Assembly: GCA_000146045.2 (NCBI GenBank)
Contig: BK006947.3
Span: 64,001-128,000 of the forward strand
Direction: 5' to 3'
Length of the DNA stretch: 64,000 nucleotides
DNA from: TPA_inf: Saccharomyces
Taxonomy: Eukaryota
Positions 2,517 to 41,183 of the stretch are shown here, piece after piece; positions within the stretch are counted from its first letter, which is position 1; each line of letters begins with the position of its first letter. The notes below the pieces were generated by a model. That model had not been told where the DNA came from. It did no database searches and was given only the letters and a program-made list of their open reading frames with translations. The position numbers were made by a program, and so were the translations under genes.

Positions 2517-4445
2517 ATGACAAGGCTCAAAGCAAAATATTCACCTACAAAAGGTAAAAGAAAAGAAGATAAACATACAAAACGTATGCGTAAATCATCC
2601 TTCACAAGAACGCAAAAAATGCTTGAAGTATTTAACGATAATCGCTCGCATTTTAACAAGTACGAGAGCCTCGCTATCGACGTTGAAGACGATGACACTT
2701 TCGGAAACCTAGTCTTAATGGAAAATGATAAAAGTGATGTCGACATACCTGTAATAGAAGAAGTCACATCAAGTGAAGATGAACAAAGGGCAGAATCTAG
2801 CAAAAGAAACAATTCTCTCGAAGATAATCAAGATTTTATTGCTTTTTCGGACAGCTCTGAAGATGAAACAGAACAAATAAAGGAAGATGATGATGAAAGA
2901 AGCAGTTTTCTGTTGACCGATGAACATGAAGTTTCTAAGCTTACTTCACAGCAATCTCTGAACACTGAAAGCGCTTGCAATGTGGAGTATCCTTGGATAA
3001 GAAATCATTGTCATTCGAAACAAAGGAGAATAGCAGATTGGCTAACTTCAGAAATCAAAGATTTCGTTCATTATATCTCTCCAAGCAAGAACGAAATCAA
3101 GTGCAGAAATAGAACGATCGATAAACTACGCCGGGCGGTCAAGGAACTGTGGTCGGATGCAGATTTGCATGTGTTTGGTTCTTTTGCCACCGATTTATAT
3201 TTGCCGGGTTCTGACATTGACTGTGTCGTAAACAGCCGGAATCGCGATAAAGAGGACAGAAATTACATTTATGAATTGGCGAGACATTTGAAAAACAAAG
3301 GGCTAGCTATAAGAATGGAGGTTATTGTTAAAACGCGAGTGCCTATTATCAAATTCATAGAGCCCCAATCACAGTTACATATCGACGTTTCATTTGAAAG
3401 AACGAACGGGTTAGAGGCTGCAAAACTCATCAGGGAATGGCTAAGAGACTCTCCAGGGTTACGTGAACTGGTACTGATAATAAAACAATTTTTGCATTCA
3501 AGACGATTGAACAATGTGCACACAGGAGGATTGGGAGGTTTCACAGTAATCTGTTTGGTTTATTCTTTTTTAAATATGCATCCGCGAATAAAATCAAACG
3601 ATATCGACGTTCTAGATAACCTGGGTGTTCTACTGATTGACTTCTTCGAACTTTACGGAAAAAATTTTGGTTATGATGACGTTGCTATAAGCATATCTGA
3701 TGGTTACGCCTCTTATATTCCTAAATCGTGTTGGAGAACTTTGGAACCTTCAAGGAGTAAATTCTCGCTAGCTATTCAAGATCCTGGTGATCCTAACAAT
3801 AATATAAGCAGAGGCTCCTTTAATATGAAGGATATAAAAAAGGCCTTTGCTGGTGCCTTCGAACTGTTGGTCAATAAATGCTGGGAATTGAATTCTGCTA
3901 CATTCAAAGACCGCGTTGGAAAAAGTATACTCGGAAACGTGATCAAATACCGTGGGCAAAAGAGAGATTTCAACGACGAAAGAGATTTAGTGCAGAATAA
4001 AGCCATCATTGAAAACGAGCGCTACCACAAGAGGCGCACGAGGATAGTTCAAGAAGATTTATTTATAAACGACACCGAAGACTTGCCAGTAGAGGAGATC
4101 TACAAACTTGACGAACCTGCAAAGAAGAAACAGAAGGCAAAAAAGGATAAGAGAGAAGGGGAAATCAAAAAGAGTGCCATTCCATCTCCACCTCCGGATT
4201 TTGGAGTGAGCAGAAGCAAATTGAAACGCAAAGTGAAAAAAACTGATCAGGGCTCTCTCCTACACCAAAACAACCTCAGCATAGATGACTTGATGGGACT
4301 TTCTGAGAATGATCAAGAATCCGATCAAGATCAAAAAGGAAGAGATACCCCTTCGGGACAAGATGAGAAATCACCACTGGAAACTAAGACAGTAGATGCT
4401 CAAACGAGAAGGGACTACTGGCTCTCTAAAGGCCAGGCTCTTTAA
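2517..4445 (+). CDS. TRF5: Non-canonical poly(A) polymerase of the TRAMP complex (642 aa)
   Basis: Contains the nucleotidyltransferase motif HVFGSFATDLYLPGSDIDCVV and a PAP-associated domain. The 642-aa length matches TRF5 rather than TRF4. Confidence 0.93.
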   Translation: MTRLKAKYSPTKGKRKEDKHTKRMRKSSFTRTQKMLEVFNDNRSHFNKYESLAIDVEDDDTFGNLVLMENDKSDVDIPVIEEVTSSEDEQRAESSKRNNSLEDNQDFIAFSDSSEDETEQIKEDDDERSSFLLTDEHEVSKLTSQQSLNTESACNVEYPWIRNHCHSKQRRIADWLTSEIKDFVHYISPSKNEIKCRNRTIDKLRRAVKELWSDADLHVFGSFATDLYLPGSDIDCVVNSRNRDKEDRNYIYELARHLKNKGLAIRMEVIVKTRVPIIKFIEPQSQLHIDVSFERTNGLEAAKLIREWLRDSPGLRELVLIIKQFLHSRRLNNVHTGGLGGFTVICLVYSFLNMHPRIKSNDIDVLDNLGVLLIDFFELYGKNFGYDDVAISISDGYASYIPKSCWRTLEPSRSKFSLAIQDPGDPNNNISRGSFNMKDIKKAFAGAFELLVNKCWELNSATFKDRVGKSILGNVIKYRGQKRDFNDERDLVQNKAIIENERYHKRRTRIVQEDLFINDTEDLPVEEIYKLDEPAKKKQKAKKDKREGEIKKSAIPSPPPDFGVSRSKLKRKVKKTDQGSLLHQNNLSIDDLMGLSENDQESDQDQKGRDTPSGQDEKSPLETKTVDAQTRRDYWLSKGQAL

Positions 4446-4914
4446 CACAATATAGACTCTTATAGACTATTTACTATTTATACAAGAATACCACATCGAT
4501 GTCCAAGTGAAACAATAAGCTAATGATATCAAACGCGTGGGTATTTTCCCTTTCCGGAAATATAGAGCCACCAAAAAAGGATAGTTTCCCGATATGGAAA
4601 TTTTCTCGAGCCGGTAAGATGACGAAATTTTTCATCTCTGGCATGATAGAAACATAGTATGGAACGTGCAGGAGAGTCTGATTCGAGACACATAATTTGA
4701 AAGAACCTTCTAGCCTGAGCCTTGTACATGTATTAGCGTTGCCAGTTATTTGCTTCTGCTGCTAATAAGATCAAAACCTTAAGTCCTTTATTTCGATCGA
4801 ACGTACTGCGCTACTGAAAACCATTGCATCTTTTGCTATCATTCATTCCTGGTGGTTTCTTTGGTGTAATAAATCGAACAGTGAAACTGAAACATAAAAG
4901 AAATAGTGCAAAAT

Positions 4915-7443
4915 ATGTCTCTTTCAGCTGCAGCGAATAAGATATCTGACAACGATTTCCAAAATATCGGACCGGCACCTAGACCTCCCAGTTCAAATAG
5001 CCAGGGCCGTACTTGCTATAATCAAACGCAACCTATAACCAAACTTATGAGTCAACTGGATTTAACATCAGCGTCCCATTTAGGTACAAGTACCTCCAAA
5101 AAAAAAAGCGGGTGGGTGTCCTACAAAGATGACGGTATACTTTCATTTATATGGCAAAAGAGATACCTGATGCTACACGATTCGTATGTAGCCCTTTACA
5201 AGAACGATAAACAAAATGACGATGCGATCTTGAAGATACCACTAACTAGTATTATAAGTGTAAGCAGGACACAGTTGAAACAATATTGTTTTGAGTTGGT
5301 GCGCTGCAGTGACCGAAATTCTGTATCATCAGGATCCTCGTCCTCTTTGAATGTATCATCAGACAGTAACTCCAAAAAATCAATATACATTGCTACAAAG
5401 ACAGAAAGCGATTTGCATAGTTGGTTAGACGCCATTTTTGCTAAATGTCCATTATTAAGTGGTGTATCTTCTCCAACAAACTTCACACATAAAGTTCACG
5501 TTGGTTTTGATCCAGAAACAGGTAGTTTTGTTGGTATGCCCACCAACTGGGAAAAATTATTAAAGCACTCCAGAATTACAGGAGAAGATTGGAACAATAA
5601 TTCTGCGGCTGTCATTCAAGTGTTGCAGTTTTATCAAGAGTATAATGGAGCCGGAAATCCCACAAATACTTTAGACAAGCCTCAAAGTGGTGAAACTTCC
5701 TCCTCTCAAAAATCGCTGCCAAACAGCTATAATGATAACAAACTCAGAAATAATTCAGTAAATTCAAAGTCATCTTCAGGCGTTTCTTCAAGTATGGTAT
5801 CACAGAGGAAAACCTCACAACCACCAAATACCAAATCGCCTGTTTCTCTAGGAAGCGGCTCACTGCCACCAATAAATACAAAATTGCCCACTAGTCAGTC
5901 AAATATTCCAAGACACTTACAAAATGTTCCCAACCAACAATATCCTAAGATGAGAAACGGACACTCCCCAACCAATGGCCAATTTCCTAGGGGACCTATG
6001 CATCCAAACAATTCTCAACGATCTTTGCAGCAGCAGCAGCAGCAGCAGCAGCAACAAAAACAACAGCATCAACAATATCCATACCACCATCAAGGACCAT
6101 CTCCATCTCCATCCCCATCTCCGTCTCCATTAAACCCTTATAGGCCACATCACAATATGATAAATCCTTATTCCAAACAACCTCAATCGCCATTAAGTTC
6201 ACAGTCGACCCAAAACCAAGCAATTCCACGTTATGCACAAAACTCAAGTCCTACAGCCGCACACTTTCAACCTCAAAGAACAGCTCCAAAGCCACCAATA
6301 TCAGCTCCAAGGGCGCCATACCCATCAAATCAAAATGCTACTAGTAACACACATGTACAGCCTGTTGCACCTAAGAATGACCAGTCAACCCCACAAACAA
6401 TGAGGCAGGCCCCAAAGAGACCGGATGCAGATGTCGCACAACCGGGTGGTGTGGCCAAACCGAAGAAGCCAGCAAGGCCTACCATGTCAACTGCAGAAAT
6501 AATGAGTAAGCTGAAGAAAGTCACCGTAAATGCGGATCCATCTCAATGCTTTAAAGTGATCGAGAAGGCCGGTCAAGGTGCAAGTGGGTCCGTCTACCTT
6601 GCAGAGAGGACGCATATTCCGACAGAAAGTAATATGATCGAACTCATAAACAATGATATTGATGAGCCGCACGTAGGAGATAAAGTTGCTATCAAGCAAA
6701 TGGTCTTATCTAAACAACCTCGTAAAGAACTCATAGTGAATGAAATTTTGGTTATGAAGGATTCACGTCATAAAAATATCGTCAATTTTCTCGAGGCTTA
6801 TTTGAGAACAGACGATGACCTATGGGTTGTGATGGAGTTTATGGAAGGAGGTTCACTAACAGACATTATCGAGAATAGTCCCACCAACGATAATTCACAT
6901 TCACCACTAACAGAACCCCAAATTGCATATATCGTACGAGAAACTTGCCAAGGCTTGAAATTTCTACACGACAAGCATATCATTCATAGGGATATTAAAT
7001 CAGATAATGTCTTGCTGGACACTAGAGCTAGGGTGAAAATTACCGATTTTGGGTTTTGCGCCAGATTAACTGATAAAAGAAGCAAAAGAGCCACTATGGT
7101 TGGGACACCTTACTGGATGGCACCTGAAGTTGTCAAACAACGTGAATACGATGAAAAGATTGACGTATGGTCTTTGGGTATCATGACCATTGAAATGCTG
7201 GAGGGTGAACCACCATATTTAAATGAAGATCCACTAAAGGCGTTGTACTTAATTGCAACTAATGGTACACCAAAGCTCAAGCATCCAGAAAGTTTGTCTT
7301 TAGAAATTAAACGCTTTCTAAGCGTTTGCCTTTGCGTAGATGTTAGATATAGGGCATCAACCGAAGAGCTTTTACACCACGGTTTTTTCAATATGGCATG
7401 TGATCCAAAGGATTTGACATCACTGTTGGAGTGGAAGGAATGA
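4915..7443 (+). CDS. CLA4: PAK-family (Ste20-like) protein kinase with a PH domain (842 aa)
   Basis: The kinase motifs HRDIKSDNVLL, DFGFCA and GTPYWMAPE are present, with an N-terminal PH-like region. The ORF-track start at 4906 is a GTG codon. The true ATG is at 4915 (MSLSAAANK...). Confidence 0.93.
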   Translation: MSLSAAANKISDNDFQNIGPAPRPPSSNSQGRTCYNQTQPITKLMSQLDLTSASHLGTSTSKKKSGWVSYKDDGILSFIWQKRYLMLHDSYVALYKNDKQNDDAILKIPLTSIISVSRTQLKQYCFELVRCSDRNSVSSGSSSSLNVSSDSNSKKSIYIATKTESDLHSWLDAIFAKCPLLSGVSSPTNFTHKVHVGFDPETGSFVGMPTNWEKLLKHSRITGEDWNNNSAAVIQVLQFYQEYNGAGNPTNTLDKPQSGETSSSQKSLPNSYNDNKLRNNSVNSKSSSGVSSSMVSQRKTSQPPNTKSPVSLGSGSLPPINTKLPTSQSNIPRHLQNVPNQQYPKMRNGHSPTNGQFPRGPMHPNNSQRSLQQQQQQQQQQKQQHQQYPYHHQGPSPSPSPSPSPLNPYRPHHNMINPYSKQPQSPLSSQSTQNQAIPRYAQNSSPTAAHFQPQRTAPKPPISAPRAPYPSNQNATSNTHVQPVAPKNDQSTPQTMRQAPKRPDADVAQPGGVAKPKKPARPTMSTAEIMSKLKKVTVNADPSQCFKVIEKAGQGASGSVYLAERTHIPTESNMIELINNDIDEPHVGDKVAIKQMVLSKQPRKELIVNEILVMKDSRHKNIVNFLEAYLRTDDDLWVVMEFMEGGSLTDIIENSPTNDNSHSPLTEPQIAYIVRETCQGLKFLHDKHIIHRDIKSDNVLLDTRARVKITDFGFCARLTDKRSKRATMVGTPYWMAPEVVKQREYDEKIDVWSLGIMTIEMLEGEPPYLNEDPLKALYLIATNGTPKLKHPESLSLEIKRFLSVCLCVDVRYRASTEELLHHGFFNMACDPKDLTSLLEWKE
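6028..6057 (+). repeat. (CAG)8(CAA)2 microsatellite encoding polyglutamine within CLA4
   Basis: A direct trinucleotide repeat seen in the sequence. Confidence 0.9.
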
Positions 7444-31222: not shown

Positions 31223-32080
31223 ATGGATGCTGATGAATTGGAATTGAAAGGTCATTTGAAAAAATTGAAAAAAGAAGAATTGCTTAGAAGGAAACAGTTA
31301 AAAGAGAGTAATCTTCAGAAAAGAGAGCTTGAATATAATAATGCCTCAAAAAATACTTCAATATATATTTCTGGTCTTCCCACAGACAAAACAACGAAAG
31401 AAGGACTCACTGAGCAGTTTTGCAAGTATGGAATGATAAGAACCAATCGAGATGGGGAACCCCTTTGCAAGCTATATGTGAATGATAAAGGCGCTTTCAA
31501 AGGGGATGCCTTGATCACTTATTCCAAGGAAGAAAGTGTTACATTAGCAATCGAAATGATGAACGAGTCGATCTTCCTGGGAAAACAGATCAGGGTCGAA
31601 AGAGCCCAATTTCAAAACAAGGAAGGTGACAATATGCACGGGAAAGAAAATGATTTAAAGGAGTTCAACGGACCTGAGCCTCCAATAAAGAGGCTAAAAA
31701 AAGCGAAGTCTGAAGGGGAGGGGGAAGTAATAGATTACAATGACGATGAAAGCCTAGCAAAAGCTGATCGAACGGTGATATTTGCCAACGTATTCAATAT
31801 TTACAAATCATACACAAATGATGATATAAATGATATTCAGGAAGATCTTTTGGAAGGCTGTGAAGAGATAGGTCAAGTAGACAGTATATCTGTATCTCCC
31901 AATAAGGGGGAAGCGACGGTCGTCTTTAAGAACAATAAAGTTGCATTGCAATGTTGCAAAATCATGACCGGACGTTATTTTGATGGGCAAAAGTTGCTTG
32001 CTTTCATTTCTGGAGATGAGAACACTTCAAGCACAAGTGACAAGAATGAGGACAGCGAAGTGGAAGATGACCTTATATAG
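31223..32080 (+). CDS. CUS2: U2 snRNP assembly factor with RRM domains, Tat-SF1 homolog (285 aa)
   Basis: The ORF-track start at 31214 is TTG. The true ATG is at 31223 (MDADELELKGHL...). Two RRM-like segments are present. Confidence 0.88.
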   Translation: MDADELELKGHLKKLKKEELLRRKQLKESNLQKRELEYNNASKNTSIYISGLPTDKTTKEGLTEQFCKYGMIRTNRDGEPLCKLYVNDKGAFKGDALITYSKEESVTLAIEMMNESIFLGKQIRVERAQFQNKEGDNMHGKENDLKEFNGPEPPIKRLKKAKSEGEGEVIDYNDDESLAKADRTVIFANVFNIYKSYTNDDINDIQEDLLEGCEEIGQVDSISVSPNKGEATVVFKNNKVALQCCKIMTGRYFDGQKLLAFISGDENTSSTSDKNEDSEVEDDLI

Positions 32081-32240
32081 AACTGCAGTAAAAAAATGTA
32101 TTACCCCCATATCTTTGGTACTTAAGTAAAATAAGTGAACACAATGTAATAAACAGAATGGATTAGGGCTTTATGACTTCCCAGTACAAAATAAATGTCG
32201 ATATAATACTTGAAAATGCAAGCAATGCCATCAAAAAATT

Positions 32241-32312
32241 TGAGCGGTACGAGAATCGAACCCGTGTCCCCACCTTGGAAGGGTGGGATGATAACCACTA
32301 CACTAACCGCCC
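32241..32312 (-). tRNA. tRNA-Gly (anticodon UCC)
   Basis: The minus strand reads GGGCGGTTAGTGTAGTGGTTATCATCCCACCCTTCCAAGGTGGGGACACGGGTTCGATTCTCGTACCGCTCA. It folds into a cloverleaf with a 7-bp acceptor stem and a T-run terminator downstream. Confidence 0.9.
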
Positions 32313-32609
32313 ATGTGTTGGATGGTGTAACTGTAATGACGAGGTAATAAGTGATGGCGACTATATCACCACCGAAACACAGCGATTACTTAAAAGGGTA
32401 ATCACTACTGCGATTCTAATTGTTGGAATAAACCAAACCTCTTCCGATAATGTTGGAACGAGAGTAATTAATAGTGACATGTGTTGCTATGGTAACAATC
32501 TAATGCTTACATCGTATATTAATGTACACCTCGTATACGTTTAAGTGTGATTGCACCTATTGCAGAAGGAATGTTAAACGAGAAGCTCAGACAATACTGA
32601 AGCTGTGTT

Positions 32610-32941
32610 TGAGAAATGGGTGAATGTTGAGATAATTGTTGGGATTCCATTGTTGATAAAGGCTATAATATTAGGTATACAGAATATACTAGAAGTTCTC
32701 CTCGAGGATATAGGAATCCTCAAAATGGAATCTATATTTCTACATACTAATATTACGATTATTCCTCATTCCGTTTTATATGTTTCATTATCCTATTACA
32801 TTATCAATCCTTGCACTTCAGCTTCCTCTAACCTCGATGACAGCTTCTCATAACTTATGTCATCATCTTAACACCGTATATGATAATATATTGATAATAT
32901 AACTATTAGTTGATAGACGATAGTGGATTTTTATTCCAACA
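32610..32941 (-). repeat. Ty1 3' LTR (delta), 332 bp
   Basis: Identical to the 38192-38523 copy over all positions I compared. Begins TGTTGGAATAAAAATCCACTATCG... on the element strand. Confidence 0.93.
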
Positions 32942-32963
32942 TACCACCCATAATGTAATAGAT

Positions 32964-35900
32964 CTAATGAATCCATTTGTTTGTTAATAGTTTGAATGTT
33001 TTTATCGGAAGAGGTTTGGTCATTACGTCTGCAATATTCTTTTTGGTTTCGATATAGCATACGTGCAGATGATTTCCTGATACTTCATCTCTCAATCTCA
33101 TTGCTTTAGTACCAAAAAATCTGTTCCTAAATTTCTCTTCATTATTGGATATAATTATACTGATTGTAGATTTACTGTCGGTTAGTAATCCTTTGGTAAT
33201 TGGTTTCTTGTCAAGTTCTTGTATCAGGTAACTTAGATTATTTAATAATGGGACAGATTCACTTATCGCGTGTATTTCTGCTTCCGTAGTTGAAGTACAT
33301 GTTAATGAAGCCTTGGTGGACTTTCCTCCAATTACCTTTCCATTAAGTAAATATATGTTGCCAATTTGTGATTTATAATACGGTTGGTTGCCATACGAGG
33401 CATCGCTTATAACAACTAATTTATTTGTTGGCTTAACAGGTTTGCTTTTGTGCCATATTAATTGCTTATCTCTCGTATTCCATATGAACTGTATCAATTC
33501 ATATGTCATATCTAACACTTGCTTGGACGGAAATAGTATATGTTGTGCAAGTGTGTTGATGTAGTATAATAGGTCAAATCTAAATTTATATCCAACATAT
33601 GATGCTAGACCTATCAGCTTTTGCATTTCATGTACCTTCATTTTGTAATCATCTTCTTCTAGCTCTAGTTCTTGCTGGTCTATATATAGACCTGGTTGAC
33701 CTGGAGCACTAAGTTTCCTTCCTTTTGGGTTTAAAGGTACGTTTAGTTTGGGTATTTTTTCAGTTAATGAGTTTTCCATACCCAATTTCATGTATTTACC
33801 TCTTTGGTATTTGATTTCCAAGCCAAGAATGTCATATTGAATTTCCTCATCACTTTCGCCTAGATTTATAATCTTGGTGTCGTATTGCATCTTAAGCTTC
33901 TCTATAATTCTTTTGTTTGAATTTAGATTTTTGCTAAACAATACCATATCATCTACGAATAAACAAATTGTCACTTGACTGTTTTTAAATACGCATGACC
34001 ATCCACGAACTTCTTCCATACCACATTGTTGTATCAGGTATGATTTGATAGTTTCGTACCAGTTCGCACCACTTTGTTTCAATCCATAAAGCGATTTCTT
34101 CAAACGTATTAACTTATCATTCATTCCTAAATGTGGTGGAGGTCTTATGTATAATTCTTCTTTGATGTCTGCATACAAATATGCCGAAGATATGTCTAAT
34201 TGTGTAATATAGTAGTTATTGTCTAATGCAAGTGACAGGGATGTCATTAATGCATAGTGATGTACGGTATTGGATTGCATGCCTGAGTCGTAAGTGTCAG
34301 GATGTTGAATATCACCTCTCGCAACAAATCTAGCTTTATGAGTACCGTCACGTTTCCTGTTAAAGATAAACATTGAATTTATTACTCTTTTGGGGTCTAT
34401 TTCTTTTCTGTCATAATATCTGTCAGTGTCCCAAGTTTTCATCTTCAACAGTTGGTTGACTTCTTTGTGGTATGCTTCGATATATTTTTCTTTTTCTTTA
34501 ATATCTTTATTATAGGTGATTGCCTCATCGTATCGTAAGGTTGTTCGTATTGGTTTGATTGATTTTACTGCTTTTACAGCTGCAATCAGGTGAATTCGTT
34601 TCTTCGATCTCGGAGGTTCTAAACTACGCATATTCTTAGTATTCCATGTGTCTCGTGATACCTTAATTTCAGTTTCATTATCTTCTAATGATCTTTTCTT
34701 ACTGTTGATAGTAGTATAGGCATTAGAGTCACCAATACCACCCAAACTGGAATTAGTTTGACGAGAATTGATCGGTGGAAGTTCTTTAAAGGAGTCTGAT
34801 AATTTGGTAGGAGGTTCTGGAGGCAGATCGGGAAGTGGAAGATCAGCAATTATAGATTCCTCTGTATTCTCCTTAGGACAGGTATCTGACGTTTTGATAG
34901 GAACGACGTGGTGTAGTGAATTACTTTCTGATGAGGAAGTATCGATCGAAGGTGAACGGTGTATAATCCTTTTCTCAGTCTCCTGTTCGCTTGTCTGCGG
35001 AACAGTTTTATTATTGGTACCACCCGTACTGGATATTGGTACGTTTGTATGATTAGTCTCATTGTCACTGTACGAGTCTGAGTGTCTGAAATCTTTAGAT
35101 TTACTGGTGTGCGACGATTCATGTGTGTTATATTGGGACATGGGAGCAAGTAAAGGAACATCTAATCTATGCATACCACCCGAACCAGTACTCTCGATAT
35201 CGGAAATTTGGGGGGTGCTAGATCTCTTCTTTGATGGAAGGATATTAGATTTAGATATGTTGGGATCAACTTCTCTGGGTGCGCGAATATTGGTTTTAGA
35301 AACACGTTTCGAATCTTCAGTATGAGTTGACGGAGGTGTGGAATCGGTTGGACTCACAGCTTTTGAAAGGACATTTCTCGGTTGCTCAGGATGTAGTTCG
35401 ATGTCAGATTGGAAGTCATGGTCAGATTCTATGTTAAGATCATCGGATTGTTGGATCTCATTTGACGCAATGAACGATTGATATGAAGCAGTTAAACGGT
35501 TTAAGTCTTCATCGAAAGTGAGTGCGTCGTAATTGAATTGATCTAATCTGGATTCCTTGCCCTGAAGAATAACATAGTTAGTTGTATCTACTGTCTTCTT
35601 TAAGGATGGAAGATAGATGATATATCCATAAGAGTTTCGAGACGGATGTAGAGCGTAGCCTGGGATGCCACGAGGATGTATTTTGGAGTTAGGGTTGTGA
35701 TCATTGACGATAACAGGTTGACCGAAAGGTAACAAAGTACTGATATCAAGTCCTGCCAAGCCAGCATGTTGTCTTGCAGATTTTTTGCTTTTAGGTGAAG
35801 CTAGTGAATTTCTCACAATAGTAGAAAATTCGATTGCAGAGAACCATAAATGGTTCGGTAAACCACTACATTGCAGTTGAGTACGGCAGTCATCTAATAA

Positions 35901-36930
35901 GGTACGGTTGAGCCGTTCAGCGACTCCATGTGCTCGGGAATCCGCTGTGGTTGTATAGCATGGAGTTATACCATTTTTTTCAAGGAATTTATGGAGAGTT
36001 CTGTTAGTATACTCAGAACCACGGTCCATTTGTATAACCAAGACACTGGCCTGAAACTGGTTCTTAATAAAAGCTAGTATCGTAGTAAAAACATCGAGGA
36101 TAGAGTCCTCGCGACGGTCGTGTAATGGATAAACCCAACGGAATTTTGTTGTCTCATCAGTAAATGAGATGAAATAGGATGGTGCACTTTTTGGTAGGTT
36201 GTGAACTGGACCAAATATGTCAGTATGTAGGTATTGAAAGGGTTCGTATGAATTTTGGTATTTTAGTCGTGAACCTTTGATATGTCTGTGTTTGGTGCTT
36301 TTGCCGATTAAACAATCAGGACATTGATAGTCAATAGCACTAGACCAGTCGACATCTGATTCGTTAAAATACGTGATGGTGTTATTTTTAAGTGAGTATC
36401 GAATTGTCTGTGCATTGGCATGTGCAAGCATTCGATGAATGAAAGGATAAGGATATTTGCGTGTACTTTCACTTGTATGGACATTATTGATGGTGGGTAC
36501 GGAGATATTTGATGGAAGCAAGTACTTTTTAGATACCCAGTAAAAGTCTCCATATTTTACGATAGGTGCAAGTACAGTGCCGTCAGATCGTTCTAAGACG
36601 TTTTTGGTAAAGCATGCTGTGATATCTACTGCAGCCAATTCATTCAAACTGAGTAAGTCATAGGCTATGTTAGGAGTGTGCAATACCTTTATTGATGTTT
36701 TGGTGTTGTCCTGGAAGTGAAATTGTAGGTCACCAATAGCGTTAATTGGTATATTTCTTTTTTGAGCATCAACTACGTTTATGCCAGGATTAGATGATGC
36801 TGAGTGTATGTGGTGAGCAGATCTTATAAGGGTTCGTGATGCTCCTGAATCGAGAAGGAGGTGTCCAGGGAGTTCATCATCAGAATGATTAGTGTGATTT
36901 ACCGTAGATTCAGTAAGTTCCTGGCCTAAG
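32964..36930 (-). CDS. TY1B: Ty1 TYB (Pol: protease, integrase, reverse transcriptase/RNase H), expressed by +1 frameshifting from TYA
   Basis: The open frame carries the protease DSGAS motif, the integrase HHCC/DDE region and the RT motif YVDDM(V). It ends NKWIH*. The frameshift heptamer CTTAGGC is at 36924-36930 (minus strand). I translated codons between 36683 and 36941 by hand and saw no stops. Confidence 0.9.
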
Positions 36931-38232
36931 GTGAAGGTCGTGTTTATTCTTCAATTGAATCGGTTCAGTAGTTGATCCTCTTATGAGATCGTTATCAGGG
37001 CCGGAAGAGTTATTAGATGTGGATACGTTATGAGCCCTGGCTGTTCTTGATTGTGAATTATTTGGTTTTTGGGAATTCCGAGTTATGGATTTGGGTTTGG
37101 TTGTATTCGTGTAGGTGCGAGAGTCTTTCTTCTCATCACTCGGATTTCTCCTATAAGTAGATTTATTACGTTTTGATTCCTGTTGTTCTTCATACATAGA
37201 ATGTATGTCTGAAAACAGATCAGCAACTGTCATATGTATATATCGATGACGTGCGTAGCGTAAAAATTTGTACTCGCCAGATAGACCTCTCATAATGAAT
37301 TGGCATGCTACCTTGTTATTGATAGGAATGCCATTGTTGTTTAGTCTGTCAAGAATGTTTGTGACTTCTGCTTCAAATGCATCTGCAGGTGTGCTTCCAT
37401 TATAATGCAAAGTTGCTAGGGTCGTAATGTCATTTACCTCTTGAGTATCAGATTGCATTTTGTTAATGCTTTTGGAAAGAATTTTCATGATATCTGTATA
37501 ATCAGCAGATAAGATGTCTTTAACCCAGGTGGGTAAGAATTGAGATGGAGCAAATAGTTGAAAGGTGTGACATAAGAAGGTGAGTTCGTCATCAGTCATC
37601 TGACGTACGGCTTTTCTTGTTGCTGTCGGAATAATATCACCGAGATTCGAATTTTGTAAAAATTTGATGTATGTTTTAACCCAATTTAGAAAGTCATTAG
37701 GTGAGGTTAACATTGGTGGTGGTCTGACATATTTTTTAGTGGATGTCATATCAGAGTCCGCTGAGGATGAATCAGTAAATGTATTACCTGACTCAGGTGA
37801 TGGAGTGCTCAGAGGCGTTCCAACTGATGATGGATACTGCGGAAACTGTGAATGTGGCCCAGGTGGAAAGTACATAGGCGACATTTGATAAGGTGTATAC
37901 GGAATCATAGATGGGCGTCCGTAAAATGACCAACCAGATGGATTGGCTTGGTTTTGGGTCATCATGCACTGCTGTTGGTACGGCCCATTCTGTGGTGAAT
38001 GTGACTGAGCAGTTTGAGGAGAGGCATGATGGGGGTTCTCTGGAACAGCTGATGAAGCAGGTGTTGTTGTCTGTTGAGAGTTAGCCTTAGTGGAAGCCTT
38101 ATCATATTCTTGAATTTTGGAAGCTGAAACGTCTAACGGATCTTGATTTGTGTGGACTTCCTTAGAAGTAACCGAAGCACAGGCGCTACCATGAGAAATG
38201 GGTGAATGTTGAGATAATTGTTGGGATTCCAT
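36910..38232 (-). CDS. TY1A: Ty1 TYA (Gag, 440 aa)
   Basis: Starts [33 protein letters not shown] and ends ...[10 protein letters not shown]. The ATG lies inside the 5' LTR, as in Ty1. Confidence 0.93.
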
Positions 38233-38523
38233 TGTTGATAAAGGCTATAATATTAGGTATACAGAATATACTAGAAGTTCTCCTCGAGGATATAGGAATC
38301 CTCAAAATGGAATCTATATTTCTACATACTAATATTACGATTATTCCTCATTCCGTTTTATATGTTTCATTATCCTATTACATTATCAATCCTTGCACTT
38401 CAGCTTCCTCTAACCTCGATGACAGCTTCTCATAACTTATGTCATCATCTTAACACCGTATATGATAATATATTGATAATATAACTATTAGTTGATAGAC
38501 GATAGTGGATTTTTATTCCAACA
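38192..38523 (-). repeat. Ty1 5' LTR (delta), 332 bp
   Basis: A direct repeat of 32610-32941. It contains the TYA start codon. Confidence 0.93.
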
Positions 38524-38528
38524 GTGTT

Positions 38529-38578
38529 AAAGATCTATTAGTTGATCATGTTGGAATAAAAATCCACTATCGTCTATC
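38529..38578. repeat. Scrambled delta (Ty1/Ty2 LTR) remnants. An internal delta piece in minus orientation (CTATTAGTTGAT) is fused to a delta 5' end in plus orientation (TGTTGGAATAAAAATCCACTATCGTCTATC).
   Basis: Matches the ends of the adjacent intact LTR but in opposite orientations. It lies just outside the TSD. Confidence 0.6.
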
Positions 38579-38584
38579 CAAACA

Positions 38585-38700
38585 ATTCTCTCAAAATTCG
38601 CCCAATTCTCAAAATTCACCCATTTCCCACACATATGTGTTTTAGGAACGTTTAGGATAAGGAATCGTCATACTGACGTACCTCATTTTGAGATACAACA
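38585..38700 (-). repeat. Truncated sigma (Ty3 LTR)-like fragment ending 15 bp upstream of tRNA-Asn
   Basis: The minus strand reads TGTTGTATCTCAAAATGAGGTACGTCAGTATGACGATTCC... This resembles the sigma 5' end as I recall it. The distance to the tRNA fits Ty3 targeting. Confidence 0.5.
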
Positions 38701-38715
38701 AATCATATATTATAA

Positions 38716-38789
38716 GACTCCATGGCCAAGTTGGTTAAGGCGTGCGACTGTTAATCGCAAGATCGTGAGTTCAACCCTCACTGGGGTCG
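38716..38789 (+). tRNA. tRNA-Asn (anticodon GUU)
   Basis: GACTCCATGGCCAAGTTGGTTAAGGCGTGCGACTGTTAATCGCAAGATCGTGAGTTCAACCCTCACTGGGGTCG. Forms a cloverleaf and is followed by a T-run. Confidence 0.9.
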
Positions 38790-39133
38790 TTTATTTTTTT
38801 TGTATTTGTGCTTATTTACTAAATAACCATTTCACCCTGTTATAATAATGCTTAAAAGAAGAATGTAGTTTTTCTCTTTTCCTTTAACTGCTTTACTTCT
38901 CCCGAAAAAGCAAGATGCAATCTTTTAATATGTTTGAGTTTGCTTAAAGTATATTCACAAAAAAGAAAATAAAAGTTAAAAATTTCTGAAAATCAGGACC
39001 TTATTCGATAGTTGGTCATAAATTGACTGAAAAATAGAATAATTTCGGACACCAAATGAATCATTAACAAGACAATATCTTAAGGTATGTACAAGTGAGA
39101 ATATTACTTATATATAAAACGGTTAACAATTTT

Positions 39134-40108
<975 letters not shown>

Positions 40109-40635
40109 CTAAAGGTCATGAGCTTTAATTTTACGCACTGCGTTTAGTGCAGTTACCTGGAGTTTCAGCCGGGTAAGAAAACTATACGATTGCCAAATAG
40201 AAAAACGGATATAAAGATAGTAGCTGTGAATAGTAGCTTTGTATAGTACATAAAGGTACCTTATCTAACATTGCTTGCGACGCAGAATACGCAAAATATA
40301 CTGTTTAATTGCAATCAGGAGTTTGCTACGGTATTTGGTATAATCGGAACTCATATTGTCCTACGTTCACCGAGACCAATGAACGCACAATAAAATGGAT
40401 ACTTGGAATGCCCTACCCAAAATATGAGCTGCGTTTGTTTTGTGAAAAACGAAAAGTAATTAAGTTGTTTTGCAGAAGTGTGAATAATTGGGGGACGCCA
40501 TTTGGTTTCTCTCTTCTGATTGATTAAAGTTAATTTCGGCACAATAACCCAATGACTGGCTAGGAAACTTCTCGATGCATCCGTGATCTCCCAAGGACGA
40601 AATGGTTTTTATCACGTCCTAACGACATCATATGT

Positions 40636-40703
40636 CCTCGAGGAGAACTTCTAGTATAGTATTTATTAACAATGGAATCCCAACAATCATCAAATTATTC
40701 ACC
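40636..40703 (+). repeat. Delta-like solo-LTR fragment (3' part of a Ty1/Ty2-type LTR) about 100 bp upstream of tRNA-Thr
   Basis: CCTCGAGGAGAACTTCTAGTATA...CAATGGAATCCCAACAAT...ATTCACC aligns with the 3' third of the intact Ty1 LTR, with divergence. Confidence 0.5.
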
Positions 40704-40804
40704 AAATATACACAGATTCTTATACTAACTAAAGTAAGAAGATTAGGATTTCCATACTCATTTTGTTAAGTAGCACTTGTATATCCGGTTTTCTCAAGTT
40801 CTGA

Positions 40805-40877
40805 GCTTCTATGGCCAAGTTGGTAAGGCGCCACACTAGTAATGTGGAGATCATCGGTTCAAATCCGATTGGAAGCA
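40805..40877 (+). tRNA. tRNA-Thr (anticodon AGU)
   Basis: GCTTCTATGGCCAAGTTGGTAAGGCGCCACACTAGTAATGTGGAGATCATCGGTTCAAATCCGATTGGAAGCA. Forms a cloverleaf and is followed by a T-rich terminator. Confidence 0.9.
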
Positions 40878-41183
40878 TATTATTTTTATTCTACGGTAAA
40901 CATGCCTGATGGTGATTTGAGACAGACCCCATTGCCTCAGATTTGTGAAGAATAGAAAATGTGTACATTCATTTTGATAAACTATACATATACTTAACTT
41001 TTTAACATGATAAATCAATATTGATATGGTCGGTACTGTTCACTTTATCTATATTTTTTTTCTTTCGTGCAATAATCGTCGGCTTTAATAATATTATACA
41101 TACAAAGGGAAAATGAAGGAAAGAAATATGAAAGGATGAATAAGTCTTTGATATGAATATGTAGTGTTGGTATCTAAACCTAG

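Follow-up and report, generated by a model that had tools for sequence, protein, structure and literature searches.

The Ty1 element at nt 32610–38523 (minus strand, 5914 bp) of the window, the 64,000-nucleotide stretch of DNA that was analysed, is identified by sequence matching as YNLCTy1-1 (genes YNL284C-A and YNL284C-B) of S. cerevisiae S288C chromosome XIV, already catalogued and annotated in SGD. It is best explained as an intact, recently inserted copy, a mosaic derived from the Ty1' subfamily, that lies between two tRNA genes and within an older Ty4 LTR; for this reading as a whole we estimate a probability of about 0.97. The identification is based on the gene products and the neighbouring genes. 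Gag and Gag-Pol of the element show 100% residue identity to NP_058179.1 and NP_058178.1/Q12112 (Ty1-NL1). On one side the element is flanked by PCL1, CAF40, SEC21 and CUS2, and on the other by MRPL10, WSC2 and POP3; among their products, Caf40, Wsc2, Pop3 and Pcl1 match the S288C proteins exactly, and Sec21 exactly matches the yeast protein. Compared with YNLCTy1-1 as annotated (UniProt Q12112, 'Transposon Ty1-NL1 Gag-Pol'), the 440-aa Gag, the 1755-aa Gag-Pol and the flanking genes are all the same, with zero differences detected, and no evidence contradicting the identification was encountered. An earlier note on this DNA, made without database searches, had missed the annotated status of the element, its Ty1' subfamily with a canonical gag patch, and the nearer, second tRNA gene.

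As a discovery the finding is ordinary: the annotation of the reference genome already includes the element, the mosaic structure of its gag is in the literature, and its role as a substrate for chromosome rearrangements is documented. Its value is that of a positive control, the cis and coding features of a Ty1 element having all been recovered correctly from sequence alone.

Structure and coding capacity

The element is bounded by direct delta LTRs of 332 bp, the 5' LTR at nt 38192–38523 (minus strand, delimited by a repeat search) and the 3' LTR at nt 32610–32941 (minus strand), with the termini TGTTGG...TCTCA; both the length and the TG...CA ends are those of the Ty1 family (~330–340 bp). 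Pairwise comparison of the two confirmed the identity claimed for them in the earlier note (332/332), and the 3' LTR shares 99.1% identity with the LTR part of a Ty1' contig (L021). The 5-bp repeat GTGTT is perfect at both ends, adjoining the 3' LTR at nt 32605–32609 and the 5' LTR at nt 38524–38528, and is a true target-site duplication, as was proposed, because other strain assemblies have an empty site with a single GTGTT (see below). The primer-binding site, TGGTAGCGCC, directly follows the 5' LTR (nt 38182–38191, minus strand; element position 333–342), and the polypurine tract, GGGTGGTA, abuts the 3' LTR (nt 32942–32949, minus strand; element position 5575–5582), each where it had been placed before. 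We take TGGTAGCGCC to be complementary to the 3' end of initiator tRNA-Met, as is established for Ty1, the sequence of that tRNA lying outside the window. Three more copies of GGGTGGTA occur internally, at element positions 3343, 3499 and 3781.

TYA (gag; nt 36910–38232, minus strand) encodes 440 aa followed by a stop, the length previously given, and is recognised by the Pfam TYA model (E=4e-233, 774 bits). The +1 frameshift heptamer CTTAGGC (nt 36924–36930, minus strand) is intact, as had been noted, lies in the TYA frame and occurs nowhere else in the element. TYB (pol; nt 32964–36926, minus strand), which is translated in the +1 frame following the slip and carries protease, integrase, reverse transcriptase and RNase H in that order, had been described as free of stops; this holds on full translation across the frameshift, which gives an open Gag-Pol of 1755 aa with a single terminal stop at nt 32964. 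Pfam domains detected in Gag-Pol are Pol_BBD (residues 459–533), rve (663–763), SH3_retrovirus (829–890) and RVT_2 (1281–1487), and the order TYA, Pol beta-barrel (taken to be the protease region), integrase core and RVT_2 is that of copia elements, which, with the exact matches to Ty1-NL1 of S288C, supports the original assignment to the Ty1 family of Ty1/copia-type LTR retrotransposons (Pseudoviridae). The catalytic residues are in place: DSG at 458, D669/D734/E769 (D,D35E), FVDD at 1425 and the D/E/D of RNase H, along with the HHCC zinc finger at 599 and the cleavage-site motifs. The zinc finger has the spacing H-X4-H-X32-C-X2-C, and a pattern specifying H-X3-H does not match it.

Insertion site and occupancy in other strains

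YNLCTy1-1 lies between two divergently oriented Pol III genes and upstream of both; each was detected by ARAGORN. The tRNA-Gly(UCC) gene (nt 32240–32313, minus strand; Rfam 58 bits) lies 292 bp from the duplication, in agreement with the value of about 290 bp reported earlier, and on the opposite side a tRNA-Asn(GUU) gene (nt 38716–38789, plus strand; Rfam 65 bits), absent from the earlier note, is nearer to the insertion, at 188 bp. Both distances fall in the range of a few hundred bp at which Ty1 elements integrate upstream of Pol III genes, and the Pol III-proximal location originally inferred holds. A search with Rfam at gathering thresholds across nt 32000–41000 returned three tRNAs only, and no Ty-specific RNA family. 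The site itself is an old solo LTR of Ty4 type (tau, plus strand), of which the left part occupies nt 32451–32609 and the remainder continues at nt 38524–38550. The left part is 98% identical to positions 1–159 of a complete 371-bp LTR in L002, which is followed there by a primer-binding site complementary to tRNA-Asn and then by long ORFs. YNLCTy1-1 is inserted within this old LTR, in an insertion hotspot.

The earlier note had suggested that the element may be polymorphic between strains, and a comparison of presence and absence bears this out, with eight assemblies empty and two occupied. The ten loci listed for CUS2 are a de-duplicated sample rather than a population sample, and for this reason no allele frequency is given. 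The full element is present in L008 (7053/7053 identical) and in L011, the only two carriers found, both with flanks identical to S288C; they are taken to be S288C-related laboratory backgrounds. In four assemblies (L003, L004, L007 and L010) a 60-nt sequence of the unoccupied site, containing one GTGTT, was matched exactly, and an empty site, again with one GTGTT, was recognised by eye in four more (L001, L002, L005 and L009). An ambiguous case is L006, where a hybrid LTR is found at the same left junction. It is at most a possible sign of an older shared insertion, the LTR being a hybrid and the assembly (GCA_000975675.2), in which tRNA-Asn and MRPL10 also appear to be missing, apparently a short-read one.

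The identical LTRs and the confinement of the insertion to assemblies with window-identical flanks together uphold the view, put forward before from the LTRs, that the insertion is recent. Taken alone, LTR identity sets a loose bound on age, by our own estimate up to ~10^7 generations at a per-site mutation rate of ~2–3e-10 per generation. It is very unlikely that YNLCTy1-1 is an old, fixed insertion, the LTRs of which were homogenised by gene conversion so that their identity is no sign of youth. Ty elements do often undergo gene conversion, as is generally known, and the gag patch described below is itself a case of inter-element recombination, but the unoccupied site is precise and has one GTGTT in eight non-identical haplotypes, including two (L003 and L005) with few flank mismatches relative to the window, while the two carriers have zero flank mismatches. 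Precise excision is, moreover, not a property of Ty1, the loss of which leaves a solo LTR. A recent origin of the element remains the preferred reading.

A Ty1' element with a canonical gag patch

By sequence comparison, YNLCTy1-1 belongs to Ty1' rather than to canonical Ty1, with gag codons ~13–187 replaced by canonical Ty1 sequence. The patch of canonical type, delimited by DNA and protein comparison, covers ~0.5 kb of 5' gag (nt 37666–38161, minus strand; element nt ~363–858). Over element nt 333–850, DNA identity is 97.3% with a canonical contig (L016) against 84.8% with L021, whereas the rest of gag shows 98.3% DNA identity to Ty1' and 86.7% to canonical Ty1. In 3' pol (element nt 3601–5560) identity is 98.8% to L021 versus 92.8% to canonical Ty1, and in central pol the subfamilies are nearly alike (99% identity). 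For proteins, Ty1-BL (P0126) served as the Ty1' reference and Ty1-OR (P0107) as the canonical one. They are distinguished by 101 Gag sites, at which Ty1-NL1 is nearly all canonical over residues 13–187 and nearly all Ty1' over residues 199–440 (47 of 53 diagnostic sites), and the 332 informative sites at the DNA level give the same blocks. Seven Gag substitutions are private to Ty1-NL1 with respect to both reference subfamilies. An exact look-up of Ty1-BL Gag for its encoding DNA gave no match; Ty1' DNA was represented by L021, the Gag of which differs from that of Ty1-BL at four residues. A 90%-cluster representative, P0002, was tried as the Ty1' reference and rejected, being closer to NL1 than to Ty1-BL and giving a noisy three-way pattern. 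The mosaic reproduces a published result: Czaja et al. 2020 describe the YNLCTy1-1 of SGD as recombinant in gag between Ty1' and canonical Ty1 (also S2B), with a pol that falls in the Ty1' cluster.

That the element is instead a canonical Ty1 (Ty1-H3-like), a Ty2 or a Ty1/2 hybrid is extremely improbable. Gag is not of Ty1' type along its whole length, residues 1 to ~190 being canonical, and central pol scarcely separates the subfamilies; against this, identity in the C-terminal half of Gag, in 3' pol and in the LTR is 98–99% to Ty1' and 87–93% to canonical Ty1, Gag residues 266, 270 and 312 are V, T and F rather than the A, V and L that accompany a canonical p22 region, and Czaja et al. 2020 put pol among Ty1'. 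A Ty2-derived U3 and 3' TYB are likewise absent, 3' pol and the LTR matching Ty1'. The full-length elements of ~5.96 kb in L005 and L007, which are taken to be Ty2, were compared with YNLCTy1-1 and are only 76–84% identical, with LTRs at ~81%.

As a Ty1' derivative, the element agrees with YBLWTy1-1 (Ty1-BL) in the C-terminal half of Gag, including the VTF residues, and in 3' pol, LTR type, lengths and architecture. The two differ at 54 Gag positions, concentrated in residues 13–187, where Ty1-NL1 is canonical. With canonical Ty1 (Ty1-H3 and, in S288C, Ty1-OR, -JR2, -ER1 and -GR2) it shares the family, primer-binding site, polypurine tract and heptamer, and is nearly identical in Gag 13–187 and central pol, but there are ~64 Gag differences, ~49 of them past residue 200, 3' pol is ~93% identical, and the Dimer-1 interface is AVL in canonical Ty1 and VTF in Ty1-NL1. 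The element Y12_f109 (Czaja et al. 2020) is similar in being mostly Ty1' with a canonical/Ty1' exchange inside gag, but is reciprocal in arrangement: its 5' gag is Ty1' and it clusters with canonical gag, while in YNLCTy1-1 the 5' gag is canonical and the 3' gag Ty1'.

Mobility and capsid restriction

Established Ty1 biology, applied to YNLCTy1-1 on the strength of its intact parts, would have Pol II transcription start from the 5' LTR and the transcript translated into Gag (440 aa) and, by a +1 slip at CUU-AGG-C, into the 1755-aa Gag-Pol, which would be cut by protease at conserved sites. Reverse transcription would proceed in virus-like particles, primed by initiator tRNA-Met at the primer-binding site and by the polypurine tract, and integrase would place the cDNA upstream of Pol III genes with a 5-bp duplication. 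YNLCTy1-1 probably arose recently through such an event.

Transposition competence of the element itself is plausible. A pure Ty1' element, YBLWTy1-1, is mobile in his3-AI assays (PMC10951436). In YJM789, near-identical elements occur at two other loci with a chimeric Gag that is identical or one residue different, and the copy beside MET17/ACO1 has an LTR that is 332/332 identical to that of YNLCTy1-1. These copies were recovered incompletely, reaching from the 5' LTR as far as ~2.6 and ~3.9 kb, short of the 3' end and duplication; they indicate, as evidence rather than proof, that the recombinant lineage transposed after it had formed. Rather unlikely, although less so than the alternatives considered above, is that YNLCTy1-1 looks intact and is dead, through missense changes or incompatibility within a chimeric canonical/Ty1' Gag, and persists only as a substrate for recombination. 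The seven private Gag residues would fit such a copy, as would its documented history as a target of homology-mediated chromosome rearrangements, and the literature examined yielded no functional test of it. However, all catalytic and processing motifs are intact, the chimeric Gag recurs at the two YJM789 loci, one with the identical LTR, and other assemblies contain contigs 99.9% identical to the element.

If YNLCTy1-1 is competent, the C-terminal half of its capsid bears on how it would be controlled. The region equivalent to p22/p18 begins at Met249 (nt 36910–37488, minus strand; defined by sequence comparison), retains both Met249 and Met259, and is of Ty1' type at V266, T270 and F312. The p22 encoded by canonical Ty1 restricts canonical Ty1, and the C-terminal domain of Ty1-NL1 belongs to the other specificity class; the meaning of VTF versus AVL at Gag 266/270/312 for restriction of Ty1' and canonical Ty1 is taken from PMC12530519. 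Because its C-terminal domain is of Ty1' type, YNLCTy1-1 should be insensitive to canonical p22/p18, the copy-number-control factor, and susceptible to Drt2; this prediction extends to a chimera what was learned about three residues in elements of pure subfamily type. DRT2 is reported to be absent from S288C (PMC12530519). A further suggestion, which we offer tentatively and regard as possible rather than probable, is that in S288C the element evades both capsid restrictions, VTF against the p22/p18 of ~30 canonical Ty1 copies and the absence of DRT2, while its canonical N-terminal Gag may allow it to co-assemble with, or borrow from, canonical Ty1. If this is true, the gag recombinant would be an 'escape' genotype, and the near-identical copies at new loci, including the one with an identical LTR, would be explained. 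With capsid halves that are canonical at the N-terminus and Ty1' at the C-terminus, the element offers a natural test case for the recently described subfamily-specific capsid restriction by p22 versus Drt2.

Identity and anatomy of the element

Exact-sequence look-up matched the Gag protein of the minus-strand Ty1 at 32610–38523 (5914 bp) to NP_058179.1, and its frameshifted Gag-Pol to NP_058178.1/Q12112, 'Transposon Ty1-NL1' of S. cerevisiae S288C. Nearby ORFs gave exact matches to S288C Pcl1, Caf40, Wsc2 and Pop3 and to yeast Sec21, while the two directly flanking ORFs are, judging from their sequences, presumably Cus2 and Mrpl10. The Gag, Gag-Pol and neighbouring ORF matches therefore assign the window to the chromosome XIV left arm and identify the element (NL1) as SGD YNLCTy1-1, a name also used in the literature, including work on gross chromosomal rearrangements in which the element serves as homology partner. 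The element is thus a known, annotated one, and the only unusual thing about it, a mosaic gag, has been published.

An earlier note, made from the sequence alone, had described an intact, young Ty1, and its observations were confirmed in every detail and its interpretation was supported. The LTRs (32610–32941 and 38192–38523; termini TGTTGG...TCTCA) are identical at 332/332 positions in pairwise comparison, were also detected by a repeat search, and are bordered by perfect GTGTT duplications at both ends of the element. The PBS, TGGTAGCGCC, lies immediately downstream of the 5' LTR, and the PPT, GGGTGGTA, abuts the 3' LTR on its upstream side. The PPT octamer recurs three times inside the element, in the integrase-coding region (34736–34743, 35018–35025 and 35174–35181), and one of these copies may be the central PPT described for Ty1. 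TYA starts at 38232 (minus strand, 440 residues) and carries the CTTAGGC heptamer in its frame at 36930..36924, the only occurrence in the element. When one base is skipped after CTT, the frame stays open as far as 32964 and gives a Gag-Pol of 1755 residues.

Pfam detected the TYA capsid domain (774 bits) and a copia-type order in Pol: the Pol beta-barrel domain (protease region), integrase core, retroviral SH3-like domain and RVT_2. The protease DSG, the integrase motifs H-X4-H-X32-C-X2-C and D,D35E, the reverse-transcriptase FVDD and the RNase H D/E/D are all found. Gag-Pol also carries LIAA/VKAV and two further short stretches (16 residues), which we take to be Ty1 processing sites.

Insertion site and its neighbourhood

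The insertion is flanked by divergent tRNA genes. The 5' end of tRNA-Gly(UCC) is 292 bp away, in agreement with the roughly 290 bp previously noted, and that of tRNA-Asn(GUU) (38716–38789), omitted from the earlier list, is only 188 bp away. The GTGTT target corresponds to positions 155–159 of an older LTR, now split between 32451–32609 and 38524–38550, and this host of the Ty1 is a truncated Ty4-type (tau) solo LTR. A complete, 371 bp version is present in assembly GCA_029991455.1 (17187–17575 of contig L002), where the sequence after it comprises an 18-nt PBS, complementary to the tRNA-Asn(GUU) of the window plus CCA, and long ORFs; from its sequence, this strain seems to retain a full-length Ty4 at the locus.

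On the tRNA-Asn side, an 85 bp delta remnant (38549–38633) lies head-to-head with the 5' LTR. The outer end of that LTR and the first 30 nt of the remnant, separated by a 25-nt spacer, make up a perfect inverted repeat (38494–38578), a potential hairpin or cruciform site beside the element. A fragment at about 38640–38700, ending 15 nt upstream of tRNA-Asn(GUU), resembles, in our judgement, a Ty3 sigma terminus. A further delta fragment (40628–40703), inverted relative to the Ty1 LTRs and matching at 83–87%, is found about 100 bp upstream of tRNA-Thr(AGU) (40805–40877).

Occupancy across strains and age

The CUS2 neighbourhood was compared in 10 other assemblies, together with contigs encoding the same Gag. 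The possibility of strain polymorphism, raised previously, was borne out: the site is occupied by the full element in two assemblies, L008, in which the CUS2-MRPL10 interval is identical to the window (7053/7053), and L011 (GCA_002571405.2, SCEN_ locus tags), which we believe to be CEN.PK113-7D. It is empty in eight others, four with an exact 60-nt empty site and a single GTGTT (L003, L004, L007 and L010) and four on inspection (L001, L002, L005 and L009). The flanks of both occupied assemblies show no mismatches to the window, and the left flanks of the empty ones show 21–46 substitutions over about 10 kb.

The site lies in an insertion hotspot: insertions in other strains fall in the same 200 bp, with at least seven distinct points within about 200 bp across 10 assemblies. 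L005 (GCA_030035855.1; 11382–17341) carries an independent 5.96-kb element, apparently a Ty2, in the opposite orientation, whose GAAGC duplication is one base left of GTGTT. Another such element lies at GGAAT in L007 (32425–32429), a solo delta at CTTAC in L003 (32506–32510), and further events in other strains at about 32451–32456, 32470–32477 and 32539–43. L006 (GCA_000975675.2; 11388–11800) has the exact left junction of the Ty1, with a 337-nt hybrid LTR of which only the first ~176 nt match the element LTR, the remainder matching another delta type. This LTR joins window position ~40626, and tRNA-Asn and MRPL10 are absent there; the junction could represent a real deletion or rearrangement, or could be an artefact of repeat collapse.

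Assuming a mutation rate of about 2–3e-10 per site per generation, we estimate that identical LTRs alone permit an age of up to roughly 10^7 generations. The recent insertion proposed from LTR identity is supported, more strongly so by restriction of the element to the S288C haplotype, which fits the general observation that most full-length Ty insertions are strain-specific (PMC4022208).

Mosaic gag, predicted restriction class and evidence on mobility

Czaja et al. 2020 (PMC7055915), who name YNLCTy1-1 S288c_f486, cite its classification by Kim et al. as divergent Ty1' and describe it as 'essentially' Ty1', with canonical Ty1 fragments in gag and a pol that clusters with Ty1'. This mosaic was reproduced at both protein and DNA level. 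Using the 101 Gag positions that differ between Ty1-BL (YBLWTy1-1, the Ty1' reference) and Ty1-OR (canonical) as diagnostic sites, NL1 Gag is of Ty1' type at residues 8–11, canonical at nearly all sites in 13–187, and of Ty1' type again in 199–440, where 47 of the 53 sites agree. Against the Ty1' and canonical DNA references (L021 and L016), identity is 84.8% vs 97.3% in 5' gag (element nt 333–850, counted from the 5' LTR start), 98.3% vs 86.7% in 3' gag (nt 851–1614) and 98.8% vs 92.8% in 3' pol (nt 3601–5560). The LTR (nt 1–332) is 99.1% identical to Ty1', the canonical reference, with almost no LTR, being not comparable here. The exchange points in gag fall at nt 327–363 and ~858–873.

Both alternative p22 starts, Met249 and Met259, are retained, and residues 266/270/312 of NL1 Gag are V/T/F. 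These residues set restriction specificity, AVL marking canonical Ty1, restricted by p22/p18, and VTF marking Ty1', restricted by Drt2; S288C is without DRT2 (Beckwith et al. 2025, PMC12530519). From V/T/F and this specificity rule we infer that the element would be insensitive to copy-number control from its canonical neighbours.

Related copies occur elsewhere. Two were found in YJM789 (GCA_000181435.1), each visible as a partial sequence that runs inwards from the 5' LTR: one (L014, 549–4452) has an identical Gag, an unrelated flank and 99.4% identity over 3.9 kb, and the other (L023, 7710–10316) is an NL1-type element by MET17/ACO1/STT4 with an identical LTR (332/332) and a Gag differing at one residue. 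Contigs with 99.9% identity were found in further assemblies. The sibling copies at other loci argue that the recombinant NL1 lineage has very probably transposed since its formation. Together with the intact anatomy and the related YBLWTy1-1, which is mobile in assays, they indirectly make the present copy a candidate for transposition competence.
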